NCBI GenBank assembly: GCA_021791655.1
Contig: JAJYWD010000001.1
Coordinates: 32,655-96,654, forward strand
Direction of reading: 5' to 3'
Length of the DNA: 64,000 bases
Origin: Nanobdellota archaeon
GTDB taxonomy: Archaea > Nanobdellota > Nanobdellia > Parvarchaeales > Parvarchaeaceae
Shown here: positions 2,756 through 40,043 of the stretch, piece after piece
How the letters are laid out: every line of letters begins with the position of its first letter
Position numbering within the stretch: the first letter of the stretch is position 1
Made by a program: the position numbers and the translations under genes
Notes under the pieces: model-generated
Told to the model about the DNA's origin: nothing
Database searches by the model: none
Seen by the model: the letters and a program-made list of their open reading frames with translations, nothing else

Positions 2756-2978
2756 ATGAACATTAGGCTTTCTTGATTTAATTATTTTGCTCTTGATAAA
2801 GAGACATATATAAGACGAGCCTATAATTTATAATTGTGGGCTTAACTCTTAAAGCATACAGCACTCTCAGTGCCAACAGTCGAAGCACTTTATAAGTCAT
2901 AAGAACCTAATTTTGAACGGTAAGTATAATATGTCTATATAATTATCAAAAAATCTTAGGTCTTTATGTTAATATTAA

Positions 2979-3060
2979 CGCCGGGTGCAGGATTTGAACC
3001 TACGAACCCTTTCGGGAACTCGCTCTCAAGGCGAGCGCGTTGCCACTCCGCCAACCCGGC
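2979..3060 (-). tRNA. tRNA-Ser (anticodon UGA)
   Basis: Reverse complement reads GCCGGGTTGGCGGAGTGGCAACGCGCTCGCCTTGAGAGCGAGTTCCCGAAAGGGTTCGTAGGTTCAAATCCTGCACCCGGCG. It has a 7-bp acceptor stem, anticodon loop CTTGAGA, a long variable arm and a TTCAAAT T-loop. No encoded CCA. Confidence 0.8.
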
Positions 3061-3099
3061 AATACTAATATATAATTTGTTTCGATTTTATAGTTAAAT

Positions 3100-3912
3100 A
3101 TGATACTGAGAGTTACTGATTTCAGTTTGGATAAAACTTTGAATGCCGGGCAAACTTTTGCCTGGGAGAAAAAGGACGGGGTATGGCTGTCCGCCACTAG
3201 TAACCCGATTATAGTCCGTCAGACGAACCCGGAGGAGCTTGAATATTACGGTGTAACAGAAAATGTAATCAAGGAGAAACTGGGCATGAACGATGACATT
3301 GACTCAATAAATGCTGAAATAGACAAGGACGATTTCATAGATAAGGCCATAGAGTACTCTAAGGGGTTAAGAGTCGTACAAGACGGCATTTGGCCCGCCA
3401 CCTTAGGTTTTTTATTGTCTATACAATCGAACATTCCATTGATTCTTAAGAGAATACGCGTTTTATCTGGAAAGTACGGTGAACATAAAGAACTAGAAAG
3501 TATAAAATTTAACGGGTTTCCAGATTACACTAAGATTTTTGACGGCGGCATAGAAGCACTTAAAGAACTTAAATTAGGCTTTAGATACAAGTTTGTATTC
3601 TCGGCTGCGAAATTCTTCGCCGAGACCGAAATATCAAATGACATAGAAGAGATTAAGGTGCAGCTCTTGTCTATAACCGGTGTGGGAGAAAAAGTTTTGG
3701 ATTGTATACTTCTCTACGGTCTGCACGATCTATCGGCGTTTCCGATGGATGTCTGGATAAGCAGGATAATTTACAAACATTATAGTCACATCCTAAAAGA
3801 CGCTAAAAAGTACGCTGATGCTAGGGAGCTTATGGCGGGATATTTCGGTAGGTACGCTGGCTATGCCCAGCTCTTTCTCTATAACTACTCAAGGTTAAAC
3901 AAGCTAAAGTGA
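3100..3912 (+). CDS. ogg: 8-oxoguanine DNA glycosylase/AP lyase (HhH-GPD superfamily, Ogg-like)
   Basis: 270 aa with the HhH-GPD motif ITGVGEKVLDCILLYGL and the catalytic Asp region AFPMDVWISR. N-terminal beta domain contains TFAW. Confidence 0.65.
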   Translation: MILRVTDFSLDKTLNAGQTFAWEKKDGVWLSATSNPIIVRQTNPEELEYYGVTENVIKEKLGMNDDIDSINAEIDKDDFIDKAIEYSKGLRVVQDGIWPATLGFLLSIQSNIPLILKRIRVLSGKYGEHKELESIKFNGFPDYTKIFDGGIEALKELKLGFRYKFVFSAAKFFAETEISNDIEEIKVQLLSITGVGEKVLDCILLYGLHDLSAFPMDVWISRIIYKHYSHILKDAKKYADARELMAGYFGRYAGYAQLFLYNYSRLNKLK

Positions 3913-27455: not shown

Positions 27456-28132
27456 GCAATCATTCTAAGTTGAAGTTAGTATTCGGTGAGCCCGTAGCAT
27501 TTTCCAGCGACTACGCCATAATCGGAGATTTGCATCTGGGATTTGAGGAAGAAATGATAAAAGAGGGATTCAACGTGTACAATCAAAATAATAATATACT
27601 GAAAAAGATACGGCAGATCAAGAAAGAAAAGCTTATCCTCCTAGGAGACCTCCGAGCGGAACACGGCGAAATCGGTGTGAGGGAGGCGGGTTTTCTTCTG
27701 CACGCCGTATCGCAGATTTCTAGCGCGTTTTCTCACGTCGTCATAACAAAGGGCAATCACGATGGAGGTCTTGAAAAGATAACCGGTAGGTTCAAAAACG
27801 TCTCCTTGGTAAAGGAATTCATAGACGGGGGTATCGGATTCCTGCACGGTCACGCTCTCCCGTCTAAGGCACTGGTAGAGACGTGCGATACGATGTGCAT
27901 AAGCCACTTGCATCCAATGGTCAAAGTTTACGATGCAAATAATGTGATGTACAAGAAAGACTGCTGGATGCTATTTGACTTTAAACCGTCAAAGAAATCG
28001 GAATCTATCCGGGGAATCGTTGTTCCTAAGTTCAATCCTTACATAGGAGGCACGGATAATATAAAGAACGCCGGGATAATGTCAAGAGCCAGCAATATAA
28101 TGAGGCTCACAGAAGATTTTGTGATGGTCTAG
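27449..28132 (+). CDS. Calcineurin-like metallophosphoesterase
   Basis: 227 aa with motifs GDLHLG, GDL, GNHD and GH. Confidence 0.7.
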   Translation: MLGNHSKLKLVFGEPVAFSSDYAIIGDLHLGFEEEMIKEGFNVYNQNNNILKKIRQIKKEKLILLGDLRAEHGEIGVREAGFLLHAVSQISSAFSHVVITKGNHDGGLEKITGRFKNVSLVKEFIDGGIGFLHGHALPSKALVETCDTMCISHLHPMVKVYDANNVMYKKDCWMLFDFKPSKKSESIRGIVVPKFNPYIGGTDNIKNAGIMSRASNIMRLTEDFVMV

Positions 28133-29139
28133 CGTTTTTCCTTCGTTAGTGCACCCGCCCGTTTCTTTATAGCATCGAGCAGCTCCCTTTCGGTCCTGAA
28201 CATCTTGTCCACGAAATAGGGTGTGAACGGGCTGTATGTGTCAAATGGGAAGTACAGTAGGACCGGCTTTCCGGTCGTGTGCGCGTGCATCCGCTCGCTG
28301 TCCACGCCGCTCGAGTAGTTAAGTGCCGAAAGGTGTATGACCACCATATCGACCTGGTCGACCATCGCATAGTCCCGTCTTACGGTCTGGTTAAATACCA
28401 ATTCCCTGAGTCTCGGTTCTACCTGGTACCCTGCCTTGTAAAAGTCGATATCCGCACCCTTTGGATCAAATACTGTCACGTATTTTTTCAATTTCCTTAC
28501 AAATCGCTTCAGGTTAGCGTATGAGTTGACCCGGTGTTCTATGCTGTAGCTTATGTACACCTTAGGCTTGTTTGGTTTGTATATCAGGTCGTATAACGTC
28601 TGTGGGTCCTCTTTTGAGCCCATCACATAATTTTTCCTACCGATTGCCTTACTTATGAGGTTAACTGTGTACAATTCGACTTCTGACCATATCGCTATCT
28701 CGTACTCGTCTATCTCCTTGTCGGACCATTCCACCTTTGATTTTAGGTTCCTTAGTAGCTTGTCCGGGGAAGCCAGGATGGTTACGAAAAAGTCCGGCTT
28801 TACCTGCTTGAAATCGTCTATGTTAAGTAGGCTCAGAGGCCCATTTTTCCACCAGAAAGACGTCCTTCCATCTATTATGAAGTCGGTGTCTTTGTTGTAC
28901 TTAGTTTCATCCGCTATACGGTGAAGTGCCGCCGCTTTCACAATCTCTAGGGTCTTTATGTCAAGATTAGGCAGGGTTACTGCACTTATTTCTGTGTTTA
29001 TGTCCTTGCCACTCTCTATCATGAGGTCTACAAGGTTCACTATCTTGAGCTTCTTGTTCCTGCTAGAAGCCATTTTTATGACTTCATTCTCCAACTTTAT
29101 CCTGTTGGTCCCTGCTACTGCAGAACTGAACACTAGCAT
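28129..29139 (-). CDS. Two-domain protein: unknown N-terminal domain plus nucleoside 2-deoxyribosyltransferase-like (NDT/Rcl/TIR-like Rossmann) C-terminal domain
   Basis: 336 aa (alternative start at 29073, MASSRNKK). The C-terminal KVYISYSIEH…DMVVIHLSALNYSSGVDSERMHAHTTGKPVLLYFP matches the NDT-family pattern: an N-terminal flavodoxin-like strand, then Glu followed 8 residues later by GKPV. Confidence 0.4.
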   Translation of the reverse strand: MLVFSSAVAGTNRIKLENEVIKMASSRNKKLKIVNLVDLMIESGKDINTEISAVTLPNLDIKTLEIVKAAALHRIADETKYNKDTDFIIDGRTSFWWKNGPLSLLNIDDFKQVKPDFFVTILASPDKLLRNLKSKVEWSDKEIDEYEIAIWSEVELYTVNLISKAIGRKNYVMGSKEDPQTLYDLIYKPNKPKVYISYSIEHRVNSYANLKRFVRKLKKYVTVFDPKGADIDFYKAGYQVEPRLRELVFNQTVRRDYAMVDQVDMVVIHLSALNYSSGVDSERMHAHTTGKPVLLYFPFDTYSPFTPYFVDKMFRTERELLDAIKKRAGALTKEKR

Positions 29140-29239
29140 ATCAATTCATAACCCCATGTATTATATAGCGATTTCATAATTAATAATTACTATTCGTAGA
29201 TATCACTTATTTATAAACAGTTGGTTTCTAATATAAAAT

Positions 29240-30178
29240 ATGACCCCGAGAGAACTTGGTGCTTATGCCATTGCCGCCCTGCTTATAGTGATCCTTTTCG
29301 CGCTAGGCTCGATATACGCAGTTGCGTACTACTTCTTTATAATAATACTTTTCATAGTTCTATTCTCTGTCTTCTTTGTGACCAGCGTAAAACAGTATTC
29401 GCAGTTTGAAAGGGGCATAATATTCCGTTTGGGCAGGTTTAATAGGATCGCAGGGCCCGGCTGGGCAGTAGTCCTCCCCTTCTTTGAAAAGGAGTATCAG
29501 AGGATAGATGTGCGTGTTAAGATGATGGATCTGGGTCTCAATGATGTTTTTACACAGGATGACATAAGATTGTCGATAGAAGGAACAATATATTACCAAG
29601 TCGTGGACCCCGAGAAGGCTACGTTACAGATAGATAATTACGGCCAAGGGTTGAGTAATCTTGTCCAGTCAGCAGTAAGGAACGAAATGGCCTCTTTATC
29701 GATGAGGCAGGTGTTTGGTAGTCTTGATAAGATGAATGATTTATTGGCAGATGCAATAAGGCACACGACATGGAAATGGGGAATAGACGTGCCAACCGTG
29801 CAGATAAGGACGGTCGCCCCTCCGCAGGAAGTTATTCAGGCCATGCAGCAGCCCGAGATAGCCGCAAATCTGCTTCAGGCACAGAGATTTAAGGCCGATG
29901 CCCAGAGGATTGTGATGGAAGCAATAGGAGAGGGGGGTAAGGCGCTTGATGATAACTCAATAATGTATCTATACCTCCAGGCCCTGAAGCAGATGGGCGA
30001 GTCTAGCTCTTCGAAAATAGTTCTTCCAATGCAGTTTATGCAGGGGCTTGGTGGCATGGCTGGCGGGATAGCCGGTCTGTCAACCGCAGCATTGGCTTCG
30101 CTTGGTGGGCAACAGAACGTACAGAACGTGATTTCCCAGATAAAGACAAAGATAGCAAGCTCTGGGGCTCAGAAGTGA
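29240..30178 (+). CDS. SPFH/band-7 (stomatin/prohibitin-like) membrane protein
   Basis: 312 aa with N-terminal TM helices followed by a GIIFRLGRF…VPTVQIRTV SPFH core and a coiled-coil, Gly-rich C-terminus. Confidence 0.8.
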   Translation: MTPRELGAYAIAALLIVILFALGSIYAVAYYFFIIILFIVLFSVFFVTSVKQYSQFERGIIFRLGRFNRIAGPGWAVVLPFFEKEYQRIDVRVKMMDLGLNDVFTQDDIRLSIEGTIYYQVVDPEKATLQIDNYGQGLSNLVQSAVRNEMASLSMRQVFGSLDKMNDLLADAIRHTTWKWGIDVPTVQIRTVAPPQEVIQAMQQPEIAANLLQAQRFKADAQRIVMEAIGEGGKALDDNSIMYLYLQALKQMGESSSSKIVLPMQFMQGLGGMAGGIAGLSTAALASLGGQQNVQNVISQIKTKIASSGAQK

Positions 30179-30188
30179 GTTAATTAAT

Positions 30189-30956
30189 TCAACGTTTGGA
30201 ATCTCGACGCTTTAGGTGTCTGTGCACGTGATGTTCCTTGCCCGTCGCATTAACTATATCAAGGATTTTCCTGAGATCATTTACAACATAATCTGGTTTA
30301 CTCTTTCCAAGTTGCTTCGGGTAGCTCCTGAAGGCATTGAAAAGCACGGTCGACATCCCCGCTGCCTTTGAATTATCGATGTCGATATCTGGTCTGTCAC
30401 CAACAAATAATATCTCAGAAGGTCGCAGATCGCATATATCCGCTGCTCTGGTAAATGCAGCCCGGTCTGTTTTGGCTTCAGGTATGGTTTCGCCCGCTAT
30501 TATAACGACATCCAGCAGTTTGTATACCGGTAAATTTTTCAGACGCCGTGTTTTCACGCCATCCGGGATTCCAGCCCCGGTTAAAATTCCAACCTTTAGA
30601 CCAGAGCGCCTAAGACTTGTTATGACTTCTTCCATATGGAGTGCGAATTCCATGTCATTTACGAGTCCCTCATCAAACAAGTCTGCGTATCTTTTCACGT
30701 CTTCATTTACGAACTTTATCCCGCTTTTGGCAGCCATCAGCTCGTAATACAGTTCGCGTGTCCTTTGTGCGAAAGGGATTTTATCGTATTGTGAGGAAGT
30801 TGCGCTCAATGCCTTTTCGTATTTTTCTCTGCCGATTCCATAGTCACGCTGCATTTCCGTGAATACCCTTTCTCTGGCAAGTTTTATGTTATGAGAAGTG
30901 TTAGTAAGCGTGTCGTCAAAATCAAATAGAACGCCCCTTATTTTTATATTTTCCAT
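30189..30956 (-). CDS. HAD-superfamily hydrolase
   Basis: Start set to MENIKIRGVLFDFDDTL (DxDxT motif I), followed by a motif II T and motif IV GDRPDIDID. The 75-nt upstream extension in the raw ORF overlaps tRNA-Thr and was discarded. Confidence 0.7.
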   Translation of the reverse strand: MENIKIRGVLFDFDDTLTNTSHNIKLARERVFTEMQRDYGIGREKYEKALSATSSQYDKIPFAQRTRELYYELMAAKSGIKFVNEDVKRYADLFDEGLVNDMEFALHMEEVITSLRRSGLKVGILTGAGIPDGVKTRRLKNLPVYKLLDVVIIAGETIPEAKTDRAAFTRAADICDLRPSEILFVGDRPDIDIDNSKAAGMSTVLFNAFRSYPKQLGKSKPDYVVNDLRKILDIVNATGKEHHVHRHLKRRDSKR

Positions 30957-30974
30957 ACGAGACACATTTGGATA

Positions 30975-31045
30975 AGCCTCTAGTGGGAATTGAACCCACG
31001 TCGCCTCATTACAAGTGAGGTGCTCTGCCACTGAGCTATGGAGGC
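30975..31045 (-). tRNA. tRNA-Thr (anticodon UGU)
   Basis: Reverse complement reads GCCTCCATAGCTCAGTGGCAGAGCACCTCACTTGTAATGAGGCGACGTGGGTTCAATTCCCACTAGAGGCT. Anticodon loop CTTGTAA, T-loop TTCAATT. One C·A mismatch in the acceptor stem. Confidence 0.75.
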
Positions 31046-31086
31046 ATAGTATCTTTTATTCCTAGGAGTCTTTATAATTTTAATCT

Positions 31087-31863
31087 ATGGACATATCAGA
31101 GCCTAAAATACCCCCCGGTACCAAGTTCGTCGACGTGCACGCCCACATAAGCGACAAGGCATTCGACGGCAGTCGCGGTGAGCTTCTTGGTAGATTGAAA
31201 GACACTGCCATCCTAGACTCCGGTGAAGACGCTGAAGAAGATGAAAAAGTGTTGGAGAACGGCAATAAATTTGTTAATCTGCGACCGTGCATAGGTCTGC
31301 ATCCCAATAAATTGGTCGGGCTGGGAAGCGAAGCCGTAGAAAAGGAATTGTCATATCTGGAAGACAACATCAGTAAGGCGTTTGCAGTGTCAGAAATCGG
31401 TCTGGATTTCAGAAACAAGGACGAGACGCAGATAAGTACGCAGATAGCCGTACTCGAGAAAATACTTGAGCTGGCCGAAAAGAACAGGAAAGTGTGCATA
31501 CTCCACAGCAGAAAATCTATAAGCGAGCTTATTCCCATCTTGATGTCGAGTTTCAAGGTTAGAGCTGTGATACATAATTTTGAGGGCGGGGTAATCCAGT
31601 ACAGAAAAGCTGTGGAAGGCGGCGTATATATTAGCATTTCTACCGGGTTCATGCGGTACAAGAAAGACAATCTGATAAAACAATTGGACCCCCACATGAT
31701 GTTCGTGGAGACGGATTCGCCAGTATTAAGTCCGGATGAAAATATGAACACTCCACTTAATATACCAAAGTTATTAAACTATATCTCCTTGCTTATTAAT
31801 ATGAACGAATCGGATCTTAGAGAGACTATGCTTGATAATTTCAAAAGAGTATTTTATGGATGA
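31087..31863 (+). CDS. tatD: TatD-family metal-dependent DNase/hydrolase
   Basis: 258 aa. A TIM-barrel with the N-terminal VDVHAHI (HxH) and downstream E, H, H and D ligands. Confidence 0.75.
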   Translation: MDISEPKIPPGTKFVDVHAHISDKAFDGSRGELLGRLKDTAILDSGEDAEEDEKVLENGNKFVNLRPCIGLHPNKLVGLGSEAVEKELSYLEDNISKAFAVSEIGLDFRNKDETQISTQIAVLEKILELAEKNRKVCILHSRKSISELIPILMSSFKVRAVIHNFEGGVIQYRKAVEGGVYISISTGFMRYKKDNLIKQLDPHMMFVETDSPVLSPDENMNTPLNIPKLLNYISLLINMNESDLRETMLDNFKRVFYG

Positions 31864-32776
31864 AGTACTAGTTTTGGGGACTTCTTCTGCGTTTCCCACA
31901 AAAACAAGAAATCACCCTGCTGTCTACGTCTTGCTGGACGGAAAACACATTCTGCTCGACTGCGGGGAAGGAACGCAGAGACAAATAAGGCTTTCGGGTT
32001 TAAGCCCTTCACTCGATTCGGTATTTTTGACTCACTGGCATGGAGATCATTCCCTCGGTCTGGGCGGTTTAATACAGAGTCTCAATATGATGGGATCTGA
32101 CAGGGAGCTGCACGTATACGGGCCACCCGGAACCGGTAAAAGGATAAATAGGTTGTTGAAAACGTACGAATTTTATTCCAGGATAAATGTAATGGCCGTC
32201 GATATAAACGCTCCGAAGGAGAGACGCATAGCGTCATTCCCAACACACGATATATTTTCAATCAATGTAAAACACGTTGTAAAGTGCCTTGGTTACAAGG
32301 TGAAAGAAAAAGACACGCTAAATATAAGAGAGGATCTGCTAGTCAAGTACAAAATCAAGAGTGGGCCTTTCTTGAAGAAGCTAAAGGCTGGGAAAAATGT
32401 AGTTTATAACGGCAAGACACTCCTATGGAAGAAGTTTACGTATCCCAAAAAAGGGAAGACTTTTGTTTATCTCACGGACTTAATCTACGACGGTAAGCTG
32501 TCAAGATTCGCTGACGGGGCCGATGCCCTTCTGATAGAATCGACATTTACATCTGATTCAGAAGATAAAGCTAGGGAATCTTTCCATCTCACGGTAAAGC
32601 AGGCTCTAGAAATAGCGAAGGCTGCCAGCGTGAAGAGACTGTATCTCACGCACATAAGTCAGAGATACGAGGATACCGATAAAATAATGAAAGATGCAAC
32701 TCATTGGAAGGAAAGGCTGAAATGTAAGTTCGATGTTTCGGTTGCACAGGATTTTACTAAGATACGCCTATCATGA
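31856..32776 (+). CDS. rnz: Ribonuclease Z (tRNA 3' endonuclease, MBL fold)
   Basis: Start moved to MDEVLVLGTSSAFPTK (typical RNase Z N-terminus), overlapping the tatD stop (ATGGATGA). Motif LTHWHGDHSLGL (HxHxDH). Confidence 0.8.
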   Translation: MDEVLVLGTSSAFPTKTRNHPAVYVLLDGKHILLDCGEGTQRQIRLSGLSPSLDSVFLTHWHGDHSLGLGGLIQSLNMMGSDRELHVYGPPGTGKRINRLLKTYEFYSRINVMAVDINAPKERRIASFPTHDIFSINVKHVVKCLGYKVKEKDTLNIREDLLVKYKIKSGPFLKKLKAGKNVVYNGKTLLWKKFTYPKKGKTFVYLTDLIYDGKLSRFADGADALLIESTFTSDSEDKARESFHLTVKQALEIAKAASVKRLYLTHISQRYEDTDKIMKDATHWKERLKCKFDVSVAQDFTKIRLS

Positions 32777-32911
32777 CAGCATAGCGCTGCGCATAAAGTA
32801 CCTAGAATCAAGTATCTCATTTATCAACAACTCGCGACTTAATAAGTCGCTGCACGCATTTAGAAATAAAAGATAAGATTAAATATGCCACAGTATTATA
32901 ATAAAAATAAT

Positions 32912-33502
32912 ATGCAGCTAGAACGCACATTGGTCGTTGTTAAACCTGACGGCGTAAAGAGGAGACTCATCGGTAAGATAATCCAGAGACTAGAAGAGGC
33001 GGGTTTAAAACTGGTTGCTCTAAAGATGTTTACGCCGTCGGTAGACCTTGTAAAAAGTAACTATCCCGAAAGCGATGAATGGTTTAAGAAGGCTGGAGAC
33101 AGAAGTATAAACACTTTCAAGGAGATGGGCGTGAATATAGAGCAGAAATTCGGCACTGATAATCCAATAGAAGTCGGTAAAATAATAAAGAAGTGGATAG
33201 TACGATTTATGACCTCTGGGAATGTAGTGGCTATGGTTTGGGAAGGAAACAGGGCGGCAGATAACGTCAGGCGTTTGATAGGCGAGACAGATCCGTTAAA
33301 GGCGCAGCCTGGAACCATAAGGGGGGATTTTTCGGTGGATAACGTCATACTGGGAAACAGTTCGAATAGACCTATGGCAAATGTCGTTCACGCTTCTGGC
33401 AATAGAGAAGAGGCACTAACCGAGATTCCACTGTGGTTTAAGTCGGAGGAGATTCTCAGATACACGCGGGAAGGGGAGGATGCATTTTACAAGCAATGGT
33501 AA
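32912..33502 (+). CDS. ndk: Nucleoside diphosphate kinase-like protein with internal insertion (paralogue 1)
   Basis: N-terminus MQLERTLVVVKPDGVKRRLIGKIIQRLEEAGLKLVALKM matches the NDK N-terminus and His region NVVHASGN. A roughly 45-aa insertion is present relative to the canonical roughly 150-aa NDK. The raw ORF begins 27 nt upstream (32885). Confidence 0.7.
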   Translation: MQLERTLVVVKPDGVKRRLIGKIIQRLEEAGLKLVALKMFTPSVDLVKSNYPESDEWFKKAGDRSINTFKEMGVNIEQKFGTDNPIEVGKIIKKWIVRFMTSGNVVAMVWEGNRAADNVRRLIGETDPLKAQPGTIRGDFSVDNVILGNSSNRPMANVVHASGNREEALTEIPLWFKSEEILRYTREGEDAFYKQW

Positions 33503-34029
33503 CTTCAGAAAAAACGTTCGTGATGATAAAACCCGATGCAATTTCTCGAGGATTGGTGGGTGAGATAGTGGGGCGTTTCGAGCGTGCAGGCCTAAATATA
33601 ATAAAGATGAACATGGTACGGCTCGAAAGAGTGAAAGCAGAAGCTCTCTATCAATCTGATGAAGCGTGGCTTAACATGCTGACTTCTAAGGCTAAAGAAG
33701 CATTCGAAGCAGTCGGTGATAAGCTTGAGATAGGAGATACACTTACTTACGGTAAGCAGATAAGGGCGTGGCTCATAGATTATGTCACCTCAGGGCCAGT
33801 AATTCTCATGGTAATAGAAGCGACTAAAGCAGTATCTGTTGTCAGAAAGCTCGTAGGTTCAACAGACGCGTCAATTGCTGCGGCTGGAACGGTAAGGGGA
33901 GATTTGTGTAGCGATTCGCTTTATGTAGCAAATGTAGAAAAGCGCGCTATAAAGACGCTACTTCATGCCTCTGGTAACCTAAAGGAAGCGAAAAGGGAAA
34001 TCTCCTTGATGTTCGGAGACCCTGTATAA
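33496..34029 (+). CDS. ndk: Nucleoside diphosphate kinase-like protein with internal insertion (paralogue 2)
   Basis: 177 aa, TFVMIKPDAISRGLVGEIVGRFERAGLNIIKMNMV, with His region TLLHASGN. Overlaps paralogue 1 by 7 nt. Confidence 0.7.
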   Translation: MVTSEKTFVMIKPDAISRGLVGEIVGRFERAGLNIIKMNMVRLERVKAEALYQSDEAWLNMLTSKAKEAFEAVGDKLEIGDTLTYGKQIRAWLIDYVTSGPVILMVIEATKAVSVVRKLVGSTDASIAAAGTVRGDLCSDSLYVANVEKRAIKTLLHASGNLKEAKREISLMFGDPV

Positions 34030-34036
34030 ACAGCTT

Positions 34037-34573
34037 ATGGTTATAGGAACGGAAGAGTTACTGAAACTCGTCAGAGAAAATAAGCTTGTTGAGAATCTTT
34101 CTGAAAGAGAGTTAACTAATCCAGAGGGCGCGGGTCTTGAGGTAAGAGTTGGTGAGATTTATGCCTTAAGCGATAGTACGGCATTTCTTGGCGTTATCGA
34201 GCGACAGACGCCTGAAATAAAACTTATTGCTAAATATGGGGTACAAAAAGATTACGTTCTGGAACCAAATGAGTACGTTCTGATAAAGACAATCGAGAAA
34301 GTAAATCTTCCAAAAGAAATACAGGGCCTTACAATGCCACGCAGCACTCTTCAGCGGTGTGGAATCATACTGATCAGCACGCAGATGGATCCAGGTTACT
34401 CGGGAGAGCTAACGTTCGGAATGAAAAACCTGGGCGGAAATAAATTCCGCTTGGAACTTGGTGCAAGAGTGGCAAAACTGCTTTTTGTCAAAGTAGATGG
34501 TTCTGCAAATCTATACCGCGGGCAATGGAAAGGCGGCAGGGTTTCAACTGACGGTCGCGAAAAACAGGTTTGA
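34037..34573 (+). CDS. dcd: dCTP deaminase / dUTPase-family protein
   Basis: 178 aa jelly-roll with …LTMPRSTLQRCGIILISTQMDPGYSGELTFGMKNLG… (dUTPase motif-3-like). Confidence 0.7.
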   Translation: MVIGTEELLKLVRENKLVENLSERELTNPEGAGLEVRVGEIYALSDSTAFLGVIERQTPEIKLIAKYGVQKDYVLEPNEYVLIKTIEKVNLPKEIQGLTMPRSTLQRCGIILISTQMDPGYSGELTFGMKNLGGNKFRLELGARVAKLLFVKVDGSANLYRGQWKGGRVSTDGREKQV

Positions 34574-34629
34574 CAGTCCATTATCGAAATACGTTTATAA
34601 ATAAATTATGACTTTAATCATTTGTCGTT

Positions 34630-35670
34630 ATGAATGCTATTTCGGTTGCTGTAATAGGCCCGTACAAGTCAGGAAAAACGTCTCTAGTGAATAAGCTCCA
34701 GCAGAGGAAAGAGCAGCGCAGGGAAGTAGAAGGGGACGTTTCGTTCTTTAGCTTTAGGTACGGGGGGAGGGACGTCAATCTTATAGATACGCCAGGAGAC
34801 GTAGATGCGCCTACGCTTATAGCGTCTTCATTATGTATTTCCGATGCGGTCATGCTGTGTATAGCTGCAGATTCCGGCATAAATTTTCAACTAGGGGAGC
34901 TTGTGGTTCTTACGGATTCTCTGCGCATAAAAAATGGTTTGGTGTGCATGACAAAAGTTGATACAGCCACCGCCGCCGACATAGACAAGATCAAATCCAA
35001 CCTATCCCTGCTCTTTAAGGGCACCACGCTCGAAAGTTTCGCAATAATCGAAACTAATATAAACAACGACCAGACCATCGCTGACTTGCGTGCAAAGATA
35101 GCCGGGTTTTCTTATGACCAAAGCAAGATTTCTATGCCATTTAGACTTGCGATAGACGGCGCGTTCGAGTCAAAAGGATCCACGATAGCGGTGGGCACCC
35201 TGCTCAGCGGCAAGATAAGTATTCATACCGATGCAATCATAGCGCCCACTCCATTTACGAAGGAAATCTCTCTTAGTTCTGTTCAAGTAAACCAAGCCGA
35301 TGTTCAATCGGCGGAAGCGGGTGACAGAGCCAGTGTTGCGCTGAAAGGGGTGTGGCCGTGGGATTTGCCGCGCGGTGTGGAGATAAGACAGCCTAAAAGT
35401 TTTAAGGATTTGAAGAGCGGAACCATAAGAGCGAATGTAAACAAGTTGTATAAATTTGATATAAGTGACGGTTCTAGATTTACTTTGGTGTGCAACTGGC
35501 AGAGCACAGAGATTACATTATCAGCTGTAAAACGCGAAGGAAATCAGTTGACTGCAAACTTCGCGTCGGAAAAGAACATATGCTTTGACGTAAATGACAG
35601 AATGATACTAATAAACAAGGACCTACCAATACGTACTCTGCGGGTCATAGGCAGGGCAGAAGCTCTTTAG
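34630..35670 (+). CDS. Divergent, truncated EF-Tu/EF-1A-family GTPase (G domain + beta-barrel domain 2 only)
   Basis: 346 aa. G1 reads GPYKSGKTSL (atypical versus GHVDHGKT), G3 reads DTPGD, G4 reads TKVD. A domain-2-like beta barrel follows, and there is no room for domain 3. Confidence 0.55.
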   Translation: MNAISVAVIGPYKSGKTSLVNKLQQRKEQRREVEGDVSFFSFRYGGRDVNLIDTPGDVDAPTLIASSLCISDAVMLCIAADSGINFQLGELVVLTDSLRIKNGLVCMTKVDTATAADIDKIKSNLSLLFKGTTLESFAIIETNINNDQTIADLRAKIAGFSYDQSKISMPFRLAIDGAFESKGSTIAVGTLLSGKISIHTDAIIAPTPFTKEISLSSVQVNQADVQSAEAGDRASVALKGVWPWDLPRGVEIRQPKSFKDLKSGTIRANVNKLYKFDISDGSRFTLVCNWQSTEITLSAVKREGNQLTANFASEKNICFDVNDRMILINKDLPIRTLRVIGRAEAL

Positions 35671-36068
35671 TCATATGATGAATGGGCTGCTATCTTCCCT
35701 CAAACCAGACGCGGTAGCACGGCGTTACGTGGGCGCTAGAGTCATAAGGACTCTGCTCGATGTGGACATTAAAATAGTCCATTTTGAAGAGATAAATGTG
35801 ATGAGACAATTTGCAGAATAAAAGCATTACGCGCATATAAGAGATAAACCTTATTTCAGGCGGAGCGTTGATTTTCTTGGCCCCTCTTCGATTTCCGAGG
35901 CTGTTATAGAGGACGAGGATCTAATAAATAAAGTGCGAGTTGCCTTGGGAGTGTAATCGTATAGAAGGCCGATAAAGGCACAATACGAGAACGGTACAGT
36001 GCATACGCAAGAGTGAATGTGGCATACGCGTCTGACTCTGCTGCGGGCGCAGAAAGAGAGTTGACACT

Positions 36069-36329
36069 ATGGGGCCCCTAATGCGAACTTCTAATCTTAA
36101 CTACGAAGAAAAGGCCGAAGAATTTGTATCTAAATACATAGACTACCTGATGGTGGATTCACTCAGGTATCGTGAAGTATCAGAAGCCATACGGGCGGGA
36201 GATATCGCTACTGATTTAGAGCATAACCTATTCGTTAGATTCTTAGAGGGGGAGAGCGACCTCCACCCAACGACTTTGGAGAGAGTAGCAGAAGGATTAG
36301 TTGACAATTGCAGATTGCAACATCAGTGA
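36069..36329 (+). CDS. Hypothetical acidic small protein
   Basis: 86 aa ORF inside an otherwise non-coding 730-bp gap. No recognisable motif; may not be real. Confidence 0.2.
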   Translation: MGPLMRTSNLNYEEKAEEFVSKYIDYLMVDSLRYREVSEAIRAGDIATDLEHNLFVRFLEGESDLHPTTLERVAEGLVDNCRLQHQ

Positions 36330-36402
36330 ATAGATACAAAATACTGGTAGCAAAGCACGGATGTTATGCTTTTATTTTATTCCCTTCTATGAAGAGTAAA
36401 GG

Positions 36403-38139
36403 GTGATTATTATGATTGATAAAATTAGGTCCCCCATATGTACTTTCTTGGGACACGTAGACGCGGGAAAGACCAGCGTAATGGACGCTATAAGAAACAC
36501 GTATTTCGCTTACAAGGAAAGCGGAGGATTGACGCAGAACATAGGTTTGACGGAAGTTCCTACGGAGAAGATAAAGGAAATAGCCGGTGAACTGCTTTCT
36601 AAATTCAAAGTCGAGGTAAAAGTGCCCAGCATCATCTTCATAGACTCTCCCGGTCATGAGGCTTTTGTTACCCTGCGTGAGAGGGGCGCATCCATCGCTG
36701 ATTTGGTGATATTAGTAATCGACGTAAGCGAAGGCATACAAAAGCAAACCATAGAATCCATGGAAATATTGAAATCGTACAAGACCCCATTTTTGGTTGC
36801 TCTTACGAAGATAGACACGATCGAAGGATTTACAAAAGTGGAAAACAAGCCGTTTTTAGAATTCTTGAACGGACAGGACAAAAAATTCTCAGAAGCATTG
36901 GATAAAGCCGTTTATGACCTGGTTTCTGACTTCTCAAACTACGCCTTTCAAGCAGAACGCTTTGATCGTGTTTCTGACTTTACCAAACAGGTTGCAATAA
37001 TACCGGTATCAGCCGTGAATAATGTCGGTATAGAGGATTTGCTTGTGATGATAATCGGACTTAGCCAGAAGTACATAAACCCCATAGAGAGTGGTAGAAA
37101 CGAGGCCGCTATACTGGAGGAGAAGCCTCTAAGGGGCGTAGGAAAGGTGTACGATGCTATCGTGTACTCCGGGAAACTTAGTGTTGGTGACAATGTTTTG
37201 GTTCATACGTACGAGGGGGTAGCCGCCACAAGAGTAAAGATGCTTATGGAGCTGGAACCTTTGGTAGAGAGCAGGGAAAATTTCGGTGAATACCGTTCTG
37301 TTAAGTCTGTGCCCGCAGCTAAGCCGATAAGACTGGTGTTACAAGAGCCTGTAGCTTTGATAGGCACGTCCGTATCAGTTTTTTCGAGCGAAAAGGAGCG
37401 GGCGGAAAAAGAGATGGAAATGAAGACCATGATTAGTAGCATGTCCGCTAGCGATTCCTCGGGTGTTGTTGTGTGTGCGGATTCGATAGGCAGTACCGAT
37501 GCTATAACCAAGATAGCTGCTTTGAATGCAATGAAAGTTGGTAAGACAAAACTAGGCGAGCCTACAAAAGGCGAAATATCCGCCGCTAAACTGGATGAGA
37601 AACTGGTCCTATGCTTTAATGTCCCGGTTCAGAAGAGTATAAGCGAACTCGCCATGTCAGAAGGCGTTACGATAATCCAGAGTAAATCCATATACGATCT
37701 TTTCGAAAGATACAAGGAATTTATTTCGGTAAGAAAGCACGATGAACTAGAAGAAAAGACCGCGGGGCTTCTGTTGCCCGCTAAAATAGTATTTCTTAAA
37801 GGCAATATCTTTCGGAAGTCTGACCCGTGTATCTTCGGTATAGAAGTTCTTGGGGGGGAGATACGACCAGGGTATCCTCTTATTAACGCTGATGGTACCA
37901 AACTCGGAAGGATAATAGAAATACAGGGGGAAAAGAAGAAACTTATGAGGTCATTTAAGGGAGACAAAGTAGCTATAAGCGTGGCCTCGGCGGTTTATGG
38001 CAGGAATCTGCGGGAACAGGACGTGCTCTATACCGACATGGGAGTACAAGATATAATTAAGTTCGGAGATATAGAAACTATGCTACATAGTGATTATGCC
38101 GATGTTGAGGCCGAAATACGGCGAATAAAGAAGCTTTAA
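36403..38139 (+). CDS. infB: Translation initiation factor aIF5B (IF2-like GTPase)
   Basis: 578 aa. G domain RSPICTFLGHVDAGKTS…DSPGHEAF…TKID, followed by a beta barrel, a helical linker and C-terminal barrel domain IV. Confidence 0.85.
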   Translation: MIIMIDKIRSPICTFLGHVDAGKTSVMDAIRNTYFAYKESGGLTQNIGLTEVPTEKIKEIAGELLSKFKVEVKVPSIIFIDSPGHEAFVTLRERGASIADLVILVIDVSEGIQKQTIESMEILKSYKTPFLVALTKIDTIEGFTKVENKPFLEFLNGQDKKFSEALDKAVYDLVSDFSNYAFQAERFDRVSDFTKQVAIIPVSAVNNVGIEDLLVMIIGLSQKYINPIESGRNEAAILEEKPLRGVGKVYDAIVYSGKLSVGDNVLVHTYEGVAATRVKMLMELEPLVESRENFGEYRSVKSVPAAKPIRLVLQEPVALIGTSVSVFSSEKERAEKEMEMKTMISSMSASDSSGVVVCADSIGSTDAITKIAALNAMKVGKTKLGEPTKGEISAAKLDEKLVLCFNVPVQKSISELAMSEGVTIIQSKSIYDLFERYKEFISVRKHDELEEKTAGLLLPAKIVFLKGNIFRKSDPCIFGIEVLGGEIRPGYPLINADGTKLGRIIEIQGEKKKLMRSFKGDKVAISVASAVYGRNLREQDVLYTDMGVQDIIKFGDIETMLHSDYADVEAEIRRIKKL

Positions 38140-38843
38140 AGCCAGTTCTTCTGCGCGAATTCGTACAGTTCTAGCGTGTCACACTGCAACAGTCTGCCTT
38201 TGCACACAACCGCGTTTAAACTCCCATCCTTTATGAGAACAGGGAAAATCTCCTTCTCAAGAGAGTGGTGCCCAGCAGGTATATAATCAAATACGCGTGG
38301 ACTAAGCATCATTACCCCCGCGTTTATTAGGTGTGAACCGATGTCTTCTTTCGGCTTCTCAACGAATTTCGTTATCCTCTTTCCGTCCAAGAACGCAACT
38401 CCGTATCTCGAAGTGTCCTCCACGCTTATCAAGCCCATAGTTCCTATCGGCTTATACGTTTTGTGTTCGGTGTATATGCCGGAGATATCAAAATCAAACA
38501 GGGTGTCCCCATTAACGAAAAAGAAGTCTTCGTCAAAATTTTCCCTGGCAAGCTTAAGCGCCCCGGCCGTACCCAGTGCTATTTGTTCCATAGAATACTT
38601 TATGTCGACACCAAGAGAGCTCCCGTCCTTGAAATATTTTTCTATTTTATCGCCGAAGTAACCGATCCCTATTACTATGTCTGTCAATCCTTGGGATTTT
38701 AGCTGCATTATAACGTGCTCCAAAATCGGTTTTCCATTTATTGGCATCATAGGTTTGGGCGTTTCTAGGGTGAATGGTTTGAGTCTAGTGCCTAACCCGC
38801 CCGCAAGCAGAAAGACCTTGGCGTTAAGTTTCTCGCTGTTCAT
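38136..38843 (-). CDS. Sugar-1-phosphate nucleotidyltransferase (G1P thymidylyl/uridylyltransferase family)
   Basis: 235 aa with N-terminal LAGGLGTRLKPFT (the GxGxRL nucleotide-binding signature). Confidence 0.75.
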   Translation of the reverse strand: MNSEKLNAKVFLLAGGLGTRLKPFTLETPKPMMPINGKPILEHVIMQLKSQGLTDIVIGIGYFGDKIEKYFKDGSSLGVDIKYSMEQIALGTAGALKLARENFDEDFFFVNGDTLFDFDISGIYTEHKTYKPIGTMGLISVEDTSRYGVAFLDGKRITKFVEKPKEDIGSHLINAGVMMLSPRVFDYIPAGHHSLEKEIFPVLIKDGSLNAVVCKGRLLQCDTLELYEFAQKNWL

Positions 38844-38876
38844 GCGATAGTTAGCGTAATGCGCGATTAAAAATCC

Positions 38877-40043
38877 TTATGCGCGTCTTTTTCCCCGTCT
38901 TACCGCAGTATCAAGGTTTTTATCAAACAGTGTTATGAACTTTGCGTCGTCATATCTCGGCGATTTCAAAGCCCCTGCCACCAACCGCTTGTAAAGCCTT
39001 TTGTCTAACACTTTCTCCATAGCCGATGCGATGCTATCGGGGTCGTCGTTTACCAGTAGTCCGTTTGTACCGTTTTTTATGAACTCACGTGGTCCGCCCT
39101 CATTTATGCATATGACTGGTTTACCGTATGCGAGGGATTCCAGCGGAACGAATCCAGTGTCTTCATTAAACGCGAGAAACAGCGTAGCGTAGCATTCTCT
39201 ATATAGTCTCGAAACCATTTTATCGTCTATGTTTTTCATCACTATTACGCTGTTATCACCCGCGGACAGCTCTTTTATCCGTTCAAAGTAGCCCTCGTCC
39301 TCTGCAAATCCGCTAAGAACAAGCTTGAATCCCCTGCTTTTGAGACTAGACGCTTTAAACGCAGAGATAGCCAGATCCTGCCTTTTGTAGTCGATATATC
39401 TGCTGTTATAAAGCAAGAACTTCTTGGTCGTTTTCGACCTTGAAACGCGAGTGTAGTTTATGTGCGGTCTATCTTTCAGTATGTGCGATGCGTCGATAAG
39501 CCCGGCAGCGAGAAGGCGTTTCTTGACCTCTTCGCTGTGTACGAATGCAAAATCTACCTTTTTCCAAGCCGCTCGCTCAAGAAGCCTGTATACACTTACG
39601 AATAAAGGCAGCTCAATTTTGTACGCTAAACTTTGCTTCTTGTAATAATCGTACATATTATGGGCTATTCTTAATGGTGTGTGAGTCATGGCTATAGTAA
39701 CGATTTTGCTAACGTCCCTGTTTAATAGTATAAGTTCGGATATGCCGGCCGTCGATATTACTAAGGCATCATACCTAGACAAATCAATGTTAGCAGAGCG
39801 CGAGTCCTTTAGGAACAGCGCCCCCCTCAATATCAATGAGCGTCTTACCTTTTTGCCGTAATCGGTAATCTTGAATCTCTTGTATTCATCGAATGTAAGA
39901 CTCTGGTTAAACGAAAGGGTATAAACGTCTATGTCGTGTCTGCTTCCCTTTAATAGGGCTAAAATCGTACGTTCTATTCCGCCCTTACTTTTTATCCAGG
40001 GCACGAAAAGCGCCACCCGCAACTTCTTTTTAATCATATGCAC
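38877..40043 (-). CDS. GT4-family glycosyltransferase
   Basis: 388 aa GT-B fold. The C-terminal EDTGFVPLESLAYGKPVI matches the GT4 E-x7-E region. Confidence 0.75.
   Translation of the reverse strand: MHMIKKKLRVALFVPWIKSKGGIERTILALLKGSRHDIDVYTLSFNQSLTFDEYKRFKITDYGKKVRRSLILRGALFLKDSRSANIDLSRYDALVISTAGISELILLNRDVSKIVTIAMTHTPLRIAHNMYDYYKKQSLAYKIELPLFVSVYRLLERAAWKKVDFAFVHSEEVKKRLLAAGLIDASHILKDRPHINYTRVSRSKTTKKFLLYNSRYIDYKRQDLAISAFKASSLKSRGFKLVLSGFAEDEGYFERIKELSAGDNSVIVMKNIDDKMVSRLYRECYATLFLAFNEDTGFVPLESLAYGKPVICINEGGPREFIKNGTNGLLVNDDPDSIASAMEKVLDKRLYKRLVAGALKSPRYDDAKFITLFDKNLDTAVRRGKRRA

Follow-up and report, generated by a model that had tools for sequence, protein, structure and literature searches.

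The DNA analyzed here is a stretch of 64,000 nucleotides (nt) from the Nanobdellota archaeon contig JAJYWD010000001.1, referred to as the window, and it carries two adjacent genes, ndkA and ndkB, for diverged paralogues of nucleoside diphosphate kinase (NDK). This textbook housekeeping enzyme transfers the gamma-phosphate of a nucleoside triphosphate to a nucleoside diphosphate (NDP) through a phospho-histidine, and in prokaryotes it is usually encoded by a single gene and homo-oligomeric. Judged from comparative sequence data, the pair is a conserved two-gene module composed of an orthodox enzyme, NdkA, and a tail-less, interface-relaxed partner, NdkB, in which the catalytic core residues are intact. 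The reading we favor, with a probability of about 0.55, is that both would be co-expressed NDP kinases and that NdkB most likely co-assembles with NdkA into a mixed oligomer. The conservation of such a standard-plus-stripped-down pair across a small archaeal clade is the only unusual feature of the locus. What is new is the archaeal ndkA-ndkB pair, of which we found no description in the literature; the insertions of long NDKs, the HAS motif, the ndk-dUTPase-infB cluster and tandem ndk operons are already known.

The two open reading frames (ORFs) and their junction are as follows.

32912..33502, forward strand: ndkA, a long-form NDK of 196 amino acids (aa), from the ORF list
33496..34029, forward strand: ndkB, a divergent long-form NDK paralogue of 177 aa without a C-terminal tail, from the ORF list
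33496..33502, forward strand: the 7-nt overlap ATGGTAA, made of the ndkB start and the ndkA stop, read from the sequence itself

An alternative upstream ATG at 32885 would lengthen NdkA to 205 aa; the start at 32912 is the likely one, because orthologues begin with M(M)ERTLV. The ATGGTAA overlap suggests that translation of ndkB may be coupled to that of ndkA. A preliminary description of this DNA had proposed two tandem NDK paralogues overlapping by 7 nt, and it was right on both counts: the ORFs are adjacent on the same strand, their products are 34% identical, and both match the Pfam NDK family.

That match (PF00334; gathering cut-off 27 bits; EC 2.7.4.6) reaches 131.4 bits for NdkA (E 2.5e-38) and 115.0 bits for NdkB (E 2.9e-33), each time split into two stretches by an insertion. 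Neither protein reaches the NCBIfam ndk equivalog cut-off of 155 (best model NF001908, with 135.7 for NdkA and 116.3 for NdkB), since these models are built on short NDKs and the insertions break up the alignment. Among solved proteins, the Pyrobaculum aerophilum enzyme, Pa-NDK (PDB 1XQI), is the closest to both, with E 2.5e-53 and 48% identity for NdkA (residues 1-182) and E 9.6e-37 and 41% identity for NdkB (residues 4-174). It aligns with each of them in one stretch without a large gap, whereas every short NDK aligns in two pieces. Single-chain AlphaFold2 (AF2) models, built from a 72-sequence alignment, have predicted local distance difference test (pLDDT) values of 94.2 for NdkA and 96.2 for NdkB. 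In Foldseek searches of the PDB, 1XQI is again the top match to both models (NdkA, TMq 0.91, TMt 0.98 and root-mean-square deviation 0.8 Å; NdkB, TMq 0.92 and 1.8 Å), and short NDKs give template modeling (TM) scores of about 0.65-0.78. By family and predicted fold, NdkA and NdkB are thus long-form, Pyrobaculum-type NDP kinases.

The closest relatives of NdkB are proteins of 170-172 aa with 50-55% identity, each encoded directly downstream of an A-type NDK of 194-198 aa. The A-to-B order occurs in 11 divergent lineages (the window and 10 others) with differing flanking genes, and in all 11 the junction measures between -7 and +2 nt, which, together with the 7-nt overlap in the window, fits co-expression of the two proteins. 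Two of the 11 lineages are labelled Candidatus Micrarchaeota: L013, added by a scan of GTDB representatives, and L014, by which that scan recovered the L008 lineage a second time. An exhaustive profile search with B through 1.84 billion cluster representatives returned one B-type representative at 242 bits, followed by ordinary long NDKs at 191 bits or less, a drop from which we conclude that the B family is small. On the contig of that representative, an A gene (194 aa) and a B gene (177 aa) overlap by 4 nt. The corresponding search with A yielded about 15 A-type clusters at 58-69% identity, and in five of five further A-type clusters that were looked up a B gene lies immediately downstream. 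The B type is absent among the matches listed of a metagenome scan with the B profile, which hold at least 80 single-copy long NDKs, and 157 of 158 other NDK loci have a single NDK gene within 3-4 kb. A neighbor-joining tree of 203 NDKs groups the A proteins in one clade (bootstrap support 100%) and the B proteins in another (78%); because the two clades hold the same lineages, one old duplication followed by co-inheritance is indicated. No other NDK gene was found within the 64-kb window.

Some related loci differ in their gene content. In L013 (JAKAST010000019.1, YP1.bin76), a third and far more divergent long-form NDK, called C here (2825-3370), lies directly upstream of A-B, so that three NDK genes stand in tandem. 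K12, Y52, R88, T94, R105, N115, H118, S120 and E129 (human NME1 numbering) are all retained in C, which has neither the WF motif nor a tail. The only exception among the 158 other loci comes from an uncultured Saccharibacteria (L030:3926-5257, CAZYBJ010000009.1), in which two long-form NDK genes stand in tandem independently of the A-B pairs. In one copy, a shorter insertion of the '...EYG' type goes with HCS at the catalytic His and with a long tail at the C-terminus; in the other, an insertion of the 'TDD...IG' type goes with HAS. Two contigs (L173:4001-4588 and L174:3038-3625; Logan SRR29366204 and SRR29366192) carry an A-type NDK with the tail FYKKWS and no B gene. The start of this solo A gene abuts an AAA_17 kinase-like gene; its product has the catalytic motif H-S-A-G and Ala in place of Glu129, and Pro72 is kept. 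A few higher-scoring matches of the B-profile search are long proteins with many NDK domains (P0125-P0127 and P0130), 1400-1500 aa in length, in which the domain is matched 10-13 separate times; these are presumably eukaryotic and bear no relation to the locus.

What distinguishes B from A became apparent when 10 paired A proteins and 11 B proteins were compared residue by residue in human NME1 numbering.

Lys12, Tyr52, Arg88, Thr94, Arg105 and His118: invariant in A (10/10) and in B (11/11)
Asn115: kept in A (10/10); in B, Thr in 9/11 and Asn in 2/11
Ser120: kept in A (10/10); in B, Ala in 5/11 and Ser in 6/11
Glu129: kept in A (10/10); in B, Gln in 6/11 and Glu in 5/11
Pro96 (the K-pn proline): kept in A (10/10); replaced in B (9/11)
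Trp133: kept in A (10/10); replaced in B (10/11)
C-terminus: in A, a tail of about 20 residues ending in F-Y-x-x-W; in B, nearly all stop a few residues past the (W)F motif
Pro72: in A, Asn, Lys or Glu (10/10; SGP becomes SG[N/K/E]); kept in B (11/11)

In the window, these residues and the tail are encoded at the following positions.

33389..33391, forward strand: the CAC codon of catalytic His160 of NdkA, in the motif NVVHASGN (invariant H160 column; sequence read)
33955..33966, forward strand: the T154-L-L-H157 codons of NdkB (ACG ... CAT), with Thr at the Asn115 position, then the catalytic His
33440..33499, forward strand: the C-terminal extension of NdkA, K177-W196, ending in FYKQW (alignment, residue table)

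The NdkA of the window has every catalytic residue, including Asn115, Ser120 and Glu129. In its NdkB, Thr154 stands in place of Asn115 and the K-pn proline is Ala, with the Ser and the Glu kept. In NME1, Asn115 holds the nucleotide phosphate, Ser120 hydrogen-bonds Glu129, and Glu129 in turn hydrogen-bonds the catalytic His118; the helix of Glu129 anchors the C-terminal domain, which wraps onto the Kpn loop of the neighboring subunit and stabilizes the hexamer (PMC8080780). The P96S and S120G mutants of NME1 dissociate to dimers and keep their NDP kinase activity, and NME1 residues 64-75, the segment that includes Pro72, border the C-terminus of the neighboring subunit (PMC8080780). Given these roles, the B-specific changes appear to hit the network that links the active site to the hexamer contacts, and the phospho-transfer core is left untouched. 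B is also the less constrained of the two families, with 35 invariant columns against 74 in A and within-family identities of 49-55% against 58-64%. Even so, dN/dS of B between the closer lineages is about 0.07-0.16, in the same range as A, a rough estimate with synonymous sites near saturation; by this measure, ndkB is under purifying selection and is not decaying.

Two single-copy long NDKs on metagenome contigs (L149:28-657 and L161:357-1019) have complete C-terminal tails and read HTLVHASG, with Thr in the place of Asn115; the Asn-to-Thr change is thus not confined to the B family.

On the favored reading, ndkA and ndkB would form a translationally coupled bicistron, probably extended by the dcd/dut-like gene that follows, and the two proteins would be made together in similar amounts. 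Both products are predicted to transfer the gamma-phosphate via a phospho-His (His160 in NdkA and His157 in NdkB). NdkA, with its full catalytic set and conserved C-terminal tail, would be the orthodox enzyme. NdkB, arising from an old duplication inside the clade, would have kept the nucleophile and the phosphate-binding residues, and would have lost the tail, the K-pn proline and, usually, the second shell of Asn115, Ser120 and Glu129. It would then be a still active, perhaps weaker, NDP kinase that binds nucleotide and can be phosphorylated on His, but that is unable alone to form the usual trimer contacts between tail and Kpn loop; rather than building a normal hexamer by itself, it would co-assemble with NdkA. 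We consider this the most economical explanation because the genes are tightly coupled in translation, their order is fixed, and the A proteins of the pairs show a reciprocal change at Pro72. Mixed assemblies have a precedent in eukaryotes, where NDK isoforms are reported to occur mainly as heterohexamers (PMC7554756). A more specific version, which we regard as speculative, is an obligate and asymmetric A-B hetero-hexamer, for instance a tailed A3 ring on a tail-less B3 ring joined via A-B dimers. In it, the N115T/S120A/E129Q shell would create a second catalytic site that differs in kinetics or in specificity and perhaps serves the flux of deoxynucleotides from dcd/dut. Were this arrangement real, prokaryotes would have their first described heteromeric NDK.

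Several observations weigh against co-assembly. The solo A-type gene (L173/L174) implies that A is not strictly dependent on B. The charge complementarity of acidic NME1 and basic NME2 was looked for in the isoelectric points of A and B and was not found, both proteins being mostly basic, and we rejected a pairing of that style. In environmental Chlamydiota, the one prokaryotic precedent described, the paralogues of the ndk1-ndk2 operons have apparently separate roles and locations and share no complex. The smaller number of invariant columns in B also fits a drift toward another function. Finally, N115T and S120A occur in the presumably sole NDKs of L149, L161 and L169 as well, so that these changes say little about activity either way.

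It is possible, if less probable than co-assembly, that A and B are independent, sub-functionalized enzymes, with A as the housekeeping hexamer and B as a dimer or tetramer of its own with another task, such as the handling of other substrates (for example, deoxynucleoside diphosphate or dUDP flux) or the phosphorylation of protein His residues. NDKs with a short C-terminus are typically tetramers or dimers, the P96S and S120G mutants are active as dimers, the ndk1-ndk2 operons of Waddlia and Estrella have paralogues with divergent roles, and a solo A-type gene exists. The surroundings would suit such a task, as a dcd/dut-like gene lies no more than one gene from the pair in 7/11 lineages and a NUDIX or Ham1 gene adjoins it in two others. 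Yet B begins directly at strand beta1, carries neither a signal peptide nor an additional domain, and shows no sign of another location or partner; at the base-contacting positions open to comparison, A and B show no systematic difference (both have I or V at position 60); and a very tight coupling with fixed order is what one would sooner expect of subunits that belong to a single complex, though it is no proof.

That B is instead a dead or nearly dead pseudo-enzyme, serving A only as a structural or regulatory partner in the manner of eukaryotic group II NME domains, seems to us unlikely. It would account for the faster evolution of B than of A, for the replacement of Asn115 (a key residue for holding the nucleotide phosphate; PMC8080780) in 9/11 B proteins and for the loss of the His-positioning Ser120/Glu129 pair in about half of them. 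However, the His nucleophile, K12, R88, T94, R105 and Y52 are invariant in 11/11 B proteins, which would be unexpected in a dead enzyme, and the NdkB of the window retains both Ser and Glu. The degeneration typical of group II NME domains, namely loss of the catalytic His or of core phosphate-binding residues, was not seen in any of the 11 B lineages. The N-to-T and S-to-A changes are found in single-copy NDKs elsewhere, and we therefore rejected them as firm markers of inactivity. Least credible of all, to the point of being negligible, is an artefact, that is, a mis-assembly, a single ndk gene broken in two by a frameshift, or a recently duplicated copy in decay, for which the gene overlap is the sole hint. 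NdkA and NdkB each hold a full-length NDK domain and are just 34% identical, 10 further lineages have orthologous pairs, and purifying selection acts on ndkB. Moreover, four independent assemblies (Logan SRR22746127, Logan SRR13203224, JGI 3300039716 and ENA ERZ27237177) carry identical DNA, at 99.98% identity or more over 6-12.5 kb. Because these assemblies agree, the arrangement does not stem from assembly, sequencing or a frameshift, and this explanation was rejected.

The matching segments (L001-L004) correspond to window positions 27496-40029 at 99.98-100% identity and come from four samples of separate sequencing projects; their recurrence points to a widespread, nearly clonal population.

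If co-assembly with NdkA is correct, the pair would be a prokaryotic counterpart of the NME1/NME2 mixed hexamers, and the combination of an orthodox subunit with a stripped but catalytically intact one would amount to a natural experiment on how an NDK can manage without its quaternary structure and its Ser120-Glu129-His118 network. The locus also bears on the upkeep of nucleotide pools in the very small DPANN genomes, as the pair lies beside dcd/dut, NUDIX and Ham1-type pool-sanitizing genes. The stakes are moderate: the known chemistry is unchanged, and the insertion and HAS motif that were first flagged are already structurally characterized. The one point that merits an experiment is whether the two proteins co-assemble.

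The insertion and the motif were described at first as unusual. An alignment with Pa-NDK, human NME1 and the NDKs of Dictyostelium and E. coli places the insertions of both proteins as follows.

33080..33178, forward strand: insertion 1 of NdkA, W57-G89, 33 aa (alignment; AF2 helices 55-71, 76-80 and 85-100)
33667..33753, forward strand: insertion 1 of NdkB, W58-G86, 29 aa (alignment; AF2 helices 56-72 and 82-97)
33341..33370, forward strand: insertion 2 of NdkA, N144-R153, 10 aa (alignments)
33916..33945, forward strand: insertion 2 of NdkB, S141-R150, 10 aa (alignments)

Insertion 1 lies in the nucleotide-binding hairpin, between helix alphaA (directly past Tyr52) and helix alpha2, and in the AF2 models it forms a long additional helix and lengthens alpha2 at its N-terminus. 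Insertion 2 comes after the GDF motif, where the Kpn loop has ended, and ahead of strand beta4, which bears the catalytic His; it also occurs in Pa-NDK and in the Borrelia NDK 4DI6. The preliminary description had given the insertion about 40 aa, more than the 33 and 29 aa measured, had missed insertion 2, and had suggested a position in the Kpn loop, which both the alignment and the AF2 models contradict; we rejected that placement, as insertion 1 is at alphaA/alpha2 and insertion 2 follows the loop. Its motif NxxHASGN applies to NdkA (NVVHASGN) and fails for NdkB, which reads TLLHASGN around His157 (in full, K-T-L-L-H-A-S-G-N). Nor are insertion and motif out of the ordinary, since both are standard in long-form NDKs, including the crystallized 1XQI (NLVHASDS). 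HASGN was thus rejected as a novel motif, being common among long NDKs; N-x-x-H-A-S is present in 62/77 NDKs among the matches listed in one metagenome scan. The two insertions and the HAS(G) motif are hallmarks of a known and structurally solved subfamily of long NDKs. The view that the insertion is older than the A/B duplication holds up, because the whole subfamily has it.

Among the known members of this subfamily, 1XQI has, like NdkA and NdkB, an alphaA/alpha2 insertion of about 30 aa, a further 10 inserted residues ahead of the catalytic His, and HAS. It was compared as one protein chain, whereas the window has two paralogues, and relative to it NdkB has no residues past the 'WF' motif, and Thr and Ala take the places of Asn115 and the K-pn proline. 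A review ascribes the extra subdomains of Pa-NDK to hyper-thermostability (PMC7554756); this rationale need not hold for the window proteins, because they are found in apparently ordinary environmental metagenomes. A very large set of uncharacterized long NDKs from Patescibacteria (Candidate Phyla Radiation, CPR), DPANN archaea and other groups, annotated as nucleoside-diphosphate kinase, have both insertions and N-x-x-H-A-S-G-[NDST] at the catalytic His (the matches P0014-P0024 read NLVHASGN and P0009 reads NLIHASGN). They differ from A-B in having one ndk within 3-4 kb at 157/158 loci and in that none is of the tail-less, T-x-x-H B type. The NDK of Borrelia burgdorferi (4DI6) has the 10-aa insertion 2 and a HAS motif (NVIHASAN) and, unlike A and B, has no insertion 1, so that it aligns in two stretches, with TM scores of 0.76-0.78 to the A and B models.

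NME1 and NME2 are likewise two paralogous, co-expressed subunits with the catalytic His in both, and their mixed hexamers are reported as the predominant form in vivo (PMC7554756); for A and B, co-expression is an inference. The human proteins are 88% identical and both have the full catalytic set, Kpn loop and C-terminus (PMC8080780), in contrast to A and B, which are 34% identical, with B devoid of the hexamer-stabilizing elements and co-assembly only presumed. In Waddlia chondrophila and Estrella lausannensis, a lineage-specific ndk duplication forms a probable ndk1-ndk2 operon in which the second copy is the more divergent (PMC13318545), so that a prokaryotic ndk duplication retained as a probable operon with a divergent second copy has a parallel. 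The idea of a diverged or heteromeric pair survives and gains support, as a conserved, diverged module does exist in 11 lineages; tandem ndk1-ndk2 genes as such were already known from environmental Chlamydiota. The chlamydial NDKs are short and canonical, with HGSD, and 54% identical; Ndk2 carries a signal peptide and its role is directed at the host, and the two Waddlia genes are separated by pabA (PMC13318545). The A and B proteins, by contrast, are long-form and look cytoplasmic, their genes overlap, and the second copy has no oligomerization elements.

Downstream of the pair, the window contains the following genes.

34037..34573, forward strand: a gene of the dCTP deaminase/dUTPase superfamily (Pfam DCD 2e-25, dUTPase 4e-13)
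34630..35670, forward strand: an EF-Tu-like GTPase of 346 aa (weak match to archaeal SelB domain III and SRP receptor beta)
36403..38139, forward strand: an aIF5B/InfB-like translation GTPase (Pfam IF-2 and GTP_EFTU_D4 matches on the identical gene of L001)

The dCTP deaminase/dUTPase-like gene begins 7 nt past ndkB and is probably in the same operon as ndkA-ndkB. As its best PDB matches include both dCTP deaminases and dUTPases and it falls below both NCBIfam equivalog cut-offs, we keep the label dcd/dut-like. A nucleotide-metabolism trio with dcd had been proposed, and the spacing agrees with it, as an instance of a known neighborhood. The order in the window is ndkA-ndkB-dcd/dut-GTPase-small ORFs-aIF5B. 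An archaeal cluster L7ae-S28e-L24e-ndk-infB has been described, together with one DPANN example of ndk-dUTP diphosphatase-infB (PMC10833476), and since the ndk-(dUTPase)-infB order belongs to this cluster, the pair occupies the canonical archaeal position of ndk. In 7/11 lineages the pair is at most one gene away from a dcd/dut-like gene, and in 6/11 it lies within 1-3 genes of infB; further neighbors include NUDIX and Ham1-type pyrophosphatases. A scan with sigma-70 promoter and intrinsic terminator models gave results at chance level, these being bacterial models ill-suited to an archaeon.

One related locus, L175 (GCA_021807125.1), shares with the window the framework HAD-TatD-metallo-beta-lactamase (MBL) ... 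ndkA-ndkB ... infB-NTP transferase. The EF-Tu-like GTPase, located in the window between dcd/dut and infB, has its L175 counterpart immediately upstream of ndkA. Directly upstream of ndkA in the window (31087-32776, forward strand) are genes for a TatD-family hydrolase and an RNase Z-like MBL, with an overlap of 8-32 nt according to which start is taken, and their order is conserved in L175; the RNase Z-like protein has a sub-threshold match to Anti-Pycsar Apyc1. Farther upstream, a tRNA gene on the reverse strand (30975-31045; Rfam, 69.9 bits) overlaps the first 19 or so codons of the HAD-hydrolase ORF (30189-31031, reverse strand), and the start that gives this hydrolase 280 aa is therefore probably wrong; one gene caller gives it 255 aa.

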